NCBI RefSeq assembly: GCF_054482525.1
Contig: NZ_CM137006.1
Length of the DNA stretch: 64,000 nucleotides
Reading direction: 5' to 3' (one strand)
The first letter of the stretch is position 1, and each line of letters begins with the position of its first letter. Made by a program: the position numbers. Shown in pieces: positions 11,301-14,300 of the stretch.

Positions 11301-14300
11301 AAGTCGGGGATCTGTTCCTGAAGCGCCTTATACCAGGCGGCAATTTGCGCTTTAAGCGCGGCGGTTAATGCCATGAGAAAACCTGAAATACTGTATAAAC
11401 AGCCAATATTGTGGCATTTTTCGGTTTTCAGGGGTAATGGTTTTTCTGTTTCTGGAAAGCGGCTCGCAAACACGCCCTCTCGCAATATATTTGATTGAAA
11501 GTTCGACGGCACAGTGAGCGCCAGTCTTCAGGGCAGAAAACAGCAAGTGATACCGCATTTCGTGGTTACACTTGCCGCCGTCATCGCTTCGCAGGAACCG
11601 GTATTGCCCGCCCTGGCCTGAGCCTGGACCCTCAATGCCATTATCCTGTTGGGATCTTTACAGCCATGCGTCTGGCGTCCACTCGGATAAAACTTTAGAA
11701 AAACGATATTGTGCGTAGCGGACCATATCACGATATAACGAACTTATACGCAGCTGGTTGGCCTCTTCATTAGACAGATTATTGAAATCAAGCAACACCG
11801 CTTTGTATGTATTAAAAGTTTGACTGCTTATCATACTTTCATCTAAAGAATGAGCTTTCGCCAATAAAGAAAATGCATAACGTTTTAAAGTTTTTGACGC
11901 ATCAGGAATACCGTTAAAGACATTACTGTGAGAAATATTTGCAAATACGGCAGACAGGCAGAAAAATATTTTAGATTTATCACTTTCACTGGCCTCTTTG
12001 AGATCCAGCATCGTTAATAGATTAGCGTAATGTTCATCTTCGAGAGAATGCTGTTGCCATTGGTCTGAATCGGTCATCAAAGAGGAAAATGATGAATTAA
12101 GTTCTGTTGGCTGATTATTGCATTCGGGCACAAAATCTGTTTTTCGCATTATTGCTGACATAAATATATCACGAATATAACCTTTCAATCCAAGAGCATT
12201 GAGAATCAATTGATGTTTCTTATTTTTCTGCGCATATTCCCATCCTTTTGCAAATAAAGGAAATGCACGCGTACAAATCGTTTCTGGATCATCTCTGACA
12301 TCTTCATGGGTATCCTGCAAAGATGGATATATAGAGTAATTATTCCAGATAGTCTTTTTCTTAACCTCTGGCTCAAGCATTGAGATTAACGCCTGGTGCG
12401 ATAAGCGCATTACTCGCCCAGAGTTATCGGATGATAACAGGATATAACATTTATTATCTTTATCTAACAACCCTTGCTGCTCATTGAAATTCAACTTTAT
12501 TTCTTCAGTAACGAATTGTTTTATTTCAGGTAATGCAAGATAATTGTGATAAAGGTCAAATGCTAAGTTTTTCTCTTCAACACTTCCGTTTTCAAAAAGC
12601 AAATCAATAAATTGAATAAATCTATAATTTTCAGAAACCATCAACTCTGGTCTCTTTAAAAAGAGAGCATGGAAAAAGTTAATTATTTCCGAATCGTTAC
12701 TCAGATTTTTATTTCTGAAGTAGCACAGATACGTATCCAGTACGCGCATAACAAGTTCATGATCGCTATTAAGTGGGGATTTTAATAGTTTTGCTATTAT
12801 GGACGATGGGAATGCCACTATGTCCCGCAGCGCGAAGAGTTCCATGCCATCAGTTAATTGCGTTAACAAATCTTTTACTGTTTGTATGTTATCAGTATTT
12901 TCATTGAAAGATTCGTCTACCAGAGAATCCAGTTTTTCTATCATTCCTCCGATAACAAATATATCTTTTTCGCTCTCCACATCATGATTAGACATTTCAT
13001 CGACGATATCTTTAACTTTACTATCACTTTCAAATAGTTTTTCTCTCACACCATTATTGGCGTTTACTACAGAAGTCGCATCATAATAGGATGGCGGAAT
13101 AATAACAGAGAATTCGTTAGAGAATATAGAATGATATGCAAGATTATCATCATTCAATTTCTCGCCAACGTTTAGCGAATTAACATTCCTCAGAATATGC
13201 ATCTCAATCTGACTGTCAGAAAGACTTTTAGAAAAACCACTACCTTCAGTCAGTTCAATTTTCATCCTGAGTATTTTATTTTTGAGGTCGGAAAATGTAT
13301 TTACATAGGGAATAAAAACATCTGACAAATTAGAGTTGCTTTTCTTTCCATTAATATTATCTATTCGGACGGTGATCCCTTTTTCATCACGAGGAATTGC
13401 ATCATTCATATTTATAGAGATCACATTTTCATGTCTGGATTGCCCGGTTTTAATCGTCATATTGATATCGTTTGCGCTGATCTCCGAAATCTCACTGACG
13501 AATTTTTTAAATGCATTATAGCGCTGGTGGCCAGCATTAAATTTGCCAAATGAAACATAATATGCGAAATGTTCAAGGAAACCATGTAATTCCAGTAAAT
13601 TAACCGGGTCAGAACCCTGCACCATATTTAATAACATCGTCGCATAACCATTGCATTTTGAACAATCCATACACCGCTCCTTTGCACTTGAATGATCTGC
13701 GGATCATAAGCCTGGCAAAATAGGGAATCTTACAGAAATCGCTCATTTTTAACTTTTCGCACAGTAAACTCAGGATAACCTGGTTATGAAAGTTTGCTGC
13801 TGCACCGCTCTAAACAGACTGGCGATCAATCTTTCTATCAATAAGCAGAAATGAGCGATTTTTGATAGTTTATTGGAACTGCTAAAGATATATGGTAATG
13901 AAACGACTGCACACTTTATTTTGCTTAGGGAGATAGTCGGATACACTATAGACAATGAAAATAATAAAATCAGGGACAGAATCAAGCTAATACTGAATCA
14001 CATATCTCATAATAATTTCCCAGATGATGAACAAACTCTTTATGCAATAGCATGTTTATTCCAGACTTTCCCAGAATTTGTTTATGAATATCAACCAATG
14101 TTATTAACAATAATTCAGATTGCAAGAAGAAATAATTTCATTGCCATTTTAGATACACTAGATAGATCATAAAGCAAATTTATTAAAACAATAAAATCAG
14201 ACATGTCATGCATGTCTGACCGTGTTACCTGAATAATAGGCAAAAGCCTGTGATACTCTTTTGCCCTTACATGGTATTACTGCGCAGCGGCAGGTTTACG

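Follow-up and report, generated by a model that had tools for sequence, protein, structure and literature searches.

Does transcription of an acquired gene continue into the SOS gene that lies downstream of it? The question is raised by a locus in a 64,000-nt stretch of DNA (hereafter, the window), in which a 670-aa gene lies directly upstream of dinG. The initial annotation had proposed that, with no obvious terminator between the two, transcripts of the acquired gene could read into dinG, that LexA bound at the dinG box could act as a roadblock to them, and that such coupling would be functionally interesting. If this were true, an acquired gene would rewire the control of a core SOS gene, and LexA would serve both as its repressor and as an elongation roadblock; the island, the effector gene, the dinG operator and the mechanisms of read-through, promoter occlusion and roadblocking are themselves already known. 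On balance, we regard it as probable that the spacer is an ordinary intergenic junction at which an acquired gene meets an SOS promoter, both of them already known, and that dinG is expressed mainly from its own promoter. Along the way the analysis yielded three useful outcomes, namely that a hairpin followed by four U exists in the spacer, that the island junction can be fixed at 11469/11470, and that the base rate of such arrangements shows the layout to be commonplace.

Identity of the acquired gene and boundaries of the island

Gene annotation was obtained through the near-identical record of E. coli SCU-102 (NZ_CP051753.1, reverse strand), in which the genes lie at matching coordinates and the 64 kb as a whole are not an exact match. 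In this record RefSeq labels the 670-aa ORF as the type III secretion system effector EspX2, which corresponds to ECs0876 of strain Sakai (S-loop 57) and to Z1019 of strain EDL933 (O-island 37, OI-37) (PMC4060028, PMC2323221). The gene has a GC content of 35%, against ~54% in its flanks. Its product matches the Pfam domain PF13979 (SopA_C) with 53.8 bits, above the cut-off of 25, its residues 310–669 align to the SopA and NleL structures, and the NCBIfam models match it below their cut-offs only. espX2 is thus an acquired, AT-rich gene, and the type III effector that it encodes is SopA/NleL-like. The catalytic cysteine of the HECT-like ligases (Cys753 in SopA) appears to be absent from it: in a phmmer alignment the FTCTS of SopA stands against LRISS in EspX2, with an isoleucine in the Cys753 column, an assignment that is provisional, the region being gapped and covered by one pairwise alignment. 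The proposed gene order was confirmed, in that both genes lie on the minus strand with espX2 directly upstream of dinG and a 283-bp gap between them (Table 1). Further downstream, ybiB and dinG are described in PMC3009722 as a single UV-induced transcript.

Comparison with K-12-type genomes, which carry REP elements and a divergently oriented ybiA in place of the variable segment, defines the extent of the island, which is carried by 541 of 5426 complete E. coli genomes. Homology to the K-12-type locus restarts at 11469, 95 bp 5’ of the dinG ATG, and the spacer therefore consists of two parts, a 188-bp tail that goes with espX2 and a 95-bp stretch with the dinG promoter and leader. From position 11469 downward the sequence is 99.6% identical to the K-12-type one, and the alignment places the junction precisely at 11469/11470. 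The dinG part is near-invariant in seven espX2-positive genomes (one C-to-T change, in AF39), and the tail is confined, among the 5426 complete genomes, to the 541 that are espX2-positive, with an identity of 90–100%. No terminal repeats of the kind expected to flank a mobile island were found for 11470..14275, and the segment holds no mobility genes, espX2 being the sole annotated gene between rhlE and dinG. Since the 3’ end of rhlE is also divergent from the K-12-type locus (92.5% identity), the sequence comparison suggests that the espX2 haplotype may spread through homologous recombination of the island flanks.

Several candidate origins of the tail were considered. A remnant of ybiA was rejected, tblastn of YbiA against the island being without matches, as was a known RNA family, for which Rfam gave two chance-level matches that both lie elsewhere in the island. 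As to a relic of another gene, the longest ORF in the tail (67 aa, plus strand, 11495..11698) has homologues in E. coli alone. An exact scan for a 34-mer of the tail in one genome per species had a sole match, on a metagenomic contig of 1.8 kb that is mis-binned, and was uninformative. Published 3’ ends and small genes were sought in the supplements to the RIBO-seq study of Sakai, which list neither ECs0876 nor ECs0877, nor any coordinates close to 957 kb.

Table 1. Features of the espX2-dinG locus and of the uvrB comparison, in window coordinates.
Feature	Coordinates	Strand	Description
dinG CDS	9224..11374	minus	ATP-dependent DNA helicase; from annotation; ATG at 11374; ybiB next in the same transcript
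espX2-dinG spacer	11375..11657		283 bp; exactly from the espX2 stop codon to the dinG ATG
dinG promoter and leader	11375..11469	minus	95 bp; conserved and intact at the island junction; blastn against K-12-type locus
dinG LexA operator	11389..11408	minus	non-canonical SOS box TATTGGCTGTTTATACAGTA; exact 20-mer match
GC-rich 3’ flank (tail) of espX2	11470..11657	minus	188 bp, 54% GC; always accompanies espX2
U-run	11532..11540	minus	UUUUCUGCC; directly 3’ of the hairpin; four consecutive U
Interrupted RNA hairpin	11541..11577	minus	37 nt; 9-bp outer stem, 2x2 internal loop, 3+1-bp inner stem, 5-nt loop
espX2 CDS	11658..13670	minus	670 aa; ORF list, translation, RefSeq annotation, Pfam SopA_C, composition
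Variable segment (island; OI-37/S-loop 57)	11470..14275		breakpoints from blastn against K-12-type locus
rhlE intrinsic terminator	14195..14221	minus	consensus scan; 11-pair stem then TTATTGTTTT; just inside the island
uvrB LexA box	32738..32753		canonical; found upstream of SOS-regulated uvrB

A marginal terminator-like hairpin lies between espX2 and dinG

The initial annotation had found no hairpin with a U-run behind it in the spacer (minus strand), which proved correct for simple structures and wrong for interrupted ones. A simple consensus scan, which demands an uninterrupted stem (with a loop of 3–8), had no match in 11375..11657 (minus strand). The RNA at 11577..11541, however, reads CGGCAAGUG-UA-ACC-A-C-GAAAU-G-C-GGU-AU-CACUUGCUG and folds into a hairpin with the U-run UUUUCUGCC immediately behind it. 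With a dG of -16.3 kcal/mol and a z-score of -3.84 (none of 200 shuffled sequences was equally stable), the hairpin dominates the local structure of the full spacer, in its MFE fold as well as in its centroid fold, and has the stability expected of an intrinsic terminator. Its stem is not compact: it is interrupted twice, by an internal loop (2x2) and by a mismatch (1x1). The U-run, where a U-rich tract of about 7–9 nt would be expected, has four consecutive U and five U in nine positions; its tail score is 4.40, compared with 4.0–6.1 for the terminators accepted in the window.

To grade the site we used our own implementation of a discriminant of the d’Aubenton-Carafa type, which joins the hairpin energy per nucleotide to a weighted T-tail, and scored all T-rich tails on both strands of the whole window. 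On this scale, which is approximate in that a 1990-era discriminant is combined with modern energy parameters, the spacer hairpin reaches d = +5.6 and ranks 36th among the 63 clusters in the window with d of at least 0, far under the 14–60 of the gene-end terminators (ybiJ, ybhL, fiu, gpmA, rhlE, ybiB, ybgS, acrZ and galM). Sites with d of 0–12, the background range into which the hairpin falls, lie mostly inside coding sequences and are thus chance sites; from the density of equal or better sites within CDS, the probability of one such site in 283 nt of a given strand is estimated at ~6%. Terminator prediction on this strand had been proposed as a check of the initial annotation, and it bears the annotation out as far as strong intrinsic terminators are concerned.

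A point of reference is provided by the clear intrinsic terminator of rhlE (d = 23.7, dG -13.9 kcal/mol, z -4.75), which insulates espX2 from rhlE. The spacer site resembles it in being a stable, G+C-containing hairpin downstream of a stop codon, with a U-run immediately 3’, and differs from it and from canonical terminators in its interrupted stem, in the 37-nt length of the hairpin, in having four U that are followed by CUGCC, and in its score (5.6 against 23.7). The hairpin between espX2 and dinG is a marginal intrinsic-terminator stem.

Could it nevertheless be a functional and reasonably efficient espX2 terminator or 3’-end stabiliser (11577..11532) that was carried in with the gene and leaves dinG fully insulated? 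In favour of this, the hairpin is as stable as that of rhlE (-16.3 vs -13.9 kcal/mol), and it lies in non-coding DNA 118 nt past the stop codon, in a segment that always accompanies espX2. The interruption of the stem, the presence of only four consecutive U and a score so far below that of accepted gene-end terminators speak against it and, together with the variation described below, make this explanation distinctly unlikely in our judgement.

Variation of the hairpin among espX2 carriers

We compared the hairpin in eight espX2-positive genomes or sequences. In O157:H7 a G-to-T change in the stem reduces the stability to a dG of -10.1 and the score to d = -10.6; in O145 a C-to-T change in the stem gives a dG of -14.1, and two stem changes in a Gambian strain give -13.1. 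The stem is also weakened by a 2-nt deletion in AF57. Every stem variant among the eight sequences therefore weakens the hairpin, with no compensatory change in any of them, which is not the pattern of a conserved stem, and the exact 55-nt sequence of hairpin plus tail occurs in only 101 of the 541 carriers. Some features do persist, as an efficient terminator would lead one to expect: the outer stem is kept in all eight sequences except for the closing-pair changes (G-to-T in O157, C-to-T in O145), the UUUUCU run is kept in all eight, and UUUUCUGCC is invariant apart from one C-to-T change in AF57. The hairpin and its short U-run are real and stable, and could end some transcripts; they are neither a strong nor a selectively maintained terminator. 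A 92-aa hypothetical protein annotated across the AF57 spacer, in which the 2-nt deletion fuses two frames, was treated as an annotation artefact.

The O157:H7 locus (OI-37/S-loop 57) has the gene order rhlE-espX2-dinG-ybiB and the 188-bp tail in common with the window and is 97.4% identical to it over the 3’ end of espX2, the spacer and the 5’ end of dinG. The lineage of the window is represented by the human commensal isolate SCU-102, not by O157, and its hairpin is intact where that of O157:H7 carries the stem-breaking G-to-T. One could imagine from this that the terminator is deliberately leaky, that espX2 and dinG-ybiB would form a conditional unit gated by a LexA roadblock, and that O157:H7-type lineages would have loosened the terminator through the stem-breaking substitution and so raised the coupling between virulence transcription and DNA repair, a scenario to which we attach hardly any credence.

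Composition of the spacer and Rho-dependent termination

If the hairpin is marginal, termination might instead depend on Rho, which commonly acts on horizontally acquired AT-rich genes and could here release the espX2 RNA either in the untranslated spacer of 283 nt or soon after the start of dinG. Work by Cardinale et al. in 2008 reportedly found that foreign DNA in E. coli is preferentially silenced by Rho, and the long untranslated stretch past the espX2 stop codon would suit such a mechanism. The first ~120 nt of this stretch, however, are G-rich and strongly structured (C/G 0.62–0.77 in 78-nt windows), and this combination of low C/G and structure in the 188-bp tail would be unfavourable for Rho loading. 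The sole bubble of C over G in the spacer (11474..11384, C/G 1.4–1.9) argues for Rho in its composition and against it in its position: it lies immediately before the dinG start codon, at a distance of 10–100 nt, where ribosomes loading on dinG would be expected to counteract Rho. No convincing Rho-dependent terminator was predicted from C/G composition within the spacer, and we consider Rho-dependent termination of espX2 very improbable. The scans for both kinds of terminator support the view that RNA polymerase would meet no reliable stop signal on its way from espX2 to dinG.

The dinG operator as a potential roadblock

Polymerases that pass the tail would next encounter the dinG operator. 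The box TATTGGCTGTTTATACAGTA lies just upstream of dinG and is identical to the K-12 dinG (ybiB-dinG) box given in PMC3009722. The espX2 stop codon and the box are 250 nt apart, in agreement with the ~250 bp of the initial annotation. The box is without the 5’ CTG, and among the motif-table entries listed from the same source the dinG operator has the second-lowest match to the LexA motif. A roadblock formed at so weak a match would be leaky, and both LexA occupancy and blocking at this site should be modest, judging by the motif. That LexA can block RNA polymerase in vitro is stated in PMC10310618 and PMC4132739, both of which refer to Sancar et al. 1982. The geometry is the one of known repressor roadblocks (LacI, PurR, GalR and CodY, and LexA in vitro), with an operator in the path of co-directional polymerases from upstream; the difference from the LacI, PurR, GalR and CodY cases is that the operator here is that of the downstream gene’s own promoter, and that it matches the LexA motif weakly.

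These observations bear on the possibility that read-through from espX2 is substantial. LexA at 11389..11408 would then act as a roadblock, so that the island promoter feeds dinG-ybiB only after LexA cleavage; in another version, polymerases arriving in trains would dislodge LexA and raise the basal expression of dinG. The spacer is permissive for either version in that it has no strong intrinsic terminator and a tail composed poorly for Rho loading, the hairpin of O157:H7 is weaker still (dG -10.1, d = -10.6), and LexA is named in PMC10310618 and PMC4132739 as able to block RNA polymerase in vitro. A stable hairpin with four U nonetheless lies in the path of these transcripts, the operator is weak and non-canonical and hence a poor roadblock, and the dinG promoter region has no island-specific change. 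We therefore regard substantial read-through as unlikely, an assessment to which the expression data and the frequency of the layout, both given below, also contribute.

Expression of espX2 and dinG under SOS-inducing conditions

Published expression values were available for an espX2-positive strain, O157:H7 PA20, in the form of RNA-seq of cells treated with sulfamethoxazole-trimethoprim at a high dose versus none (PMC5931665, supplement). At 5 h the log2 change was +1.60 for dinG (p 3e-6), about a 3-fold rise under an SOS-inducing dose of the drug, against +0.35 for rhlE and +0.56 for espX2, the latter not significant (PMC5931665). Since dinG is induced at this time and espX2 is not significantly so, dinG responds through its own promoter, and its induction independently of espX2 counts against read-through as a major source of its transcripts. 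By 12 h the three genes had risen together (rhlE +1.04, espX2 +0.98, dinG +0.90; PMC5931665), which is the pattern that read-through would give; the joint rise is compatible with some co-transcription and equally with separate regulation.

In the explanation that we prefer, that of an ordinary junction, the 188-bp flank of the espX2 haplotype carries a stable but imperfect hairpin with a short U-run, which would at best act as an intrinsic terminator of a weak and leaky kind, and dinG would be transcribed essentially from its own LexA-repressed promoter, with the 95-bp promoter, operator and leader unchanged. Some espX2 transcripts may continue toward dinG. Their contribution would probably be small, because espX2, as AT-rich foreign DNA, is expected to be weakly transcribed, because part of its transcripts would stop at the hairpin, and because the remainder would meet LexA at the operator, for which there is the in vitro precedent; in this explanation, how efficiently transcripts terminate, how strong the espX2 promoter is and whether LexA blocks polymerases are inferred. 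The initial proposal of read-through is accordingly retained in part: the lack of a strong intrinsic terminator, the poor prospects for Rho loading and the in vitro behaviour of LexA agree with it, and the hairpin with its four U is what it had missed. The functional interest of a coupling between espX2 and dinG fared less well; its mechanism is plausible in kind, but the coupling is unsupported, given the SOS induction of dinG at 5 h without a significant change in espX2 and a layout that is common.

Frequency of co-directional gene pairs without a clear terminator

The base rate of such junctions was taken from the window itself, which contains 19 co-directional gene pairs with a gap of at least 60 bp. 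A clear intrinsic terminator separates the genes in seven of these pairs and a marginal one in two, espX2-dinG among them; the remaining ten have none. The lack of a clear terminator between co-directional genes is thus ordinary and not beyond chance expectation, and the layout, being common and without known consequence, counts against read-through with a LexA roadblock. One of the ten pairs is bioD-uvrB, with a gap of 578 bp and a best score of -0.7, which offers a close parallel within the window: as at espX2-dinG, a co-directional upstream operon (bioBFCD) is followed by a long gap without a recognisable intrinsic terminator and then by a promoter with a LexA box. The two differ in that both partners of bioBFCD-uvrB are core genes, and in that the uvrB box is of the CTGT-N9-CAG type, whereas the dinG box begins without the CTG.

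The bioD-uvrB gap as an internal control

To gauge how ordinary the espX2-dinG layout is, we used as an internal control the second SOS gene of the window, uvrB, which is co-directional with the bioBFCD operon and lies downstream of it. No recognisable intrinsic terminator was found in the gap between bioD and uvrB, where the best score was -0.7.

Features discussed in this section, with window coordinates
Feature	Position	Strand	Detail
bioD-uvrB gap	32662..33239		578 bp
uvrB LexA box	32738..32753	-	
Predicted pairing in conserved dinG leader	11375..11433	-	fold dG -13.3, z -2.6
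Annotated 92-aa ORF, strain AF57	L012 (AF57 locus sequence):1451-1729 = window ~11632..11352		RefSeq
Diverged 3' end of rhlE	14276..14500		identity to K-12-type sequence
SopA-like C-terminal region of EspX2	residues ~530-669; gene 11658..13670	-	Pfam and alignment
Imperfect 23-nt inverted repeat	13726..13748 and 13849..13871		AT-rich region upstream of espX2
IS200C-family transposase gene	51247..51705	-	between acrZ and modA

The dinG leader and a variant spacer

Within the dinG leader, two segments can base-pair, CCUGAAA (11433-11427) and UUUCAGG (11388-11382); the LexA box lies between these arms, and the sequence UUUUCUC followed by AUG comes after the 3' arm. On transcripts begun upstream of 11433, such as read-through products, the predicted structure would mask the likely dinG ribosome-binding site; the native dinG mRNA would be devoid of the 5' arm if its start lies within or after the LexA box.

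In the espX2 carrier AF57, the inner stem of the hairpin in the espX2 tail lacks two nucleotides. This deletion fuses the frames, so that RefSeq calls a 'hypothetical protein' (WP_001162233.1) that covers the entire espX2-dinG spacer and overlaps the dinG start, and which is probably an annotation artefact.

Edges of the espX2 haplotype

Identity to the K-12-type sequence is 99.6% on the dinG side but only 92.5% in the final 228 bp of rhlE. The espX2 haplotype therefore has an indistinct boundary that extends into rhlE, a pattern that spread via homologous recombination, and not site-specific integration, would be expected to leave. Of the 541 records that match the espX2 tail, one is labelled plasmid, not chromosome.

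The EspX2 C-terminal domain

The C-terminal domain of EspX2 is SopA-like (HECT-like E3 ligase) and scores over the Pfam cut-off, and SopA/NleL structures can be aligned with the protein; no pentapeptide-repeat domain was found in the protein. Provisionally (from a single pairwise alignment, in a gapped region), an isoleucine ('LRISS') sits opposite the SopA catalytic Cys753 ('FTCTS'). The final 100 residues hold a single cysteine (FFC571LS). EspX2 may be a divergent or catalytically inactive relative.

Other repeats and insertions

The arms of the inverted repeat upstream of espX2 are 83% complementary and separated by 100 nt (core AAATGAGCGATTT). Strong terminator-like hairpins flank the IS200C-family transposase gene on either side and on both strands (51166, 51139, 51837 and 51855).
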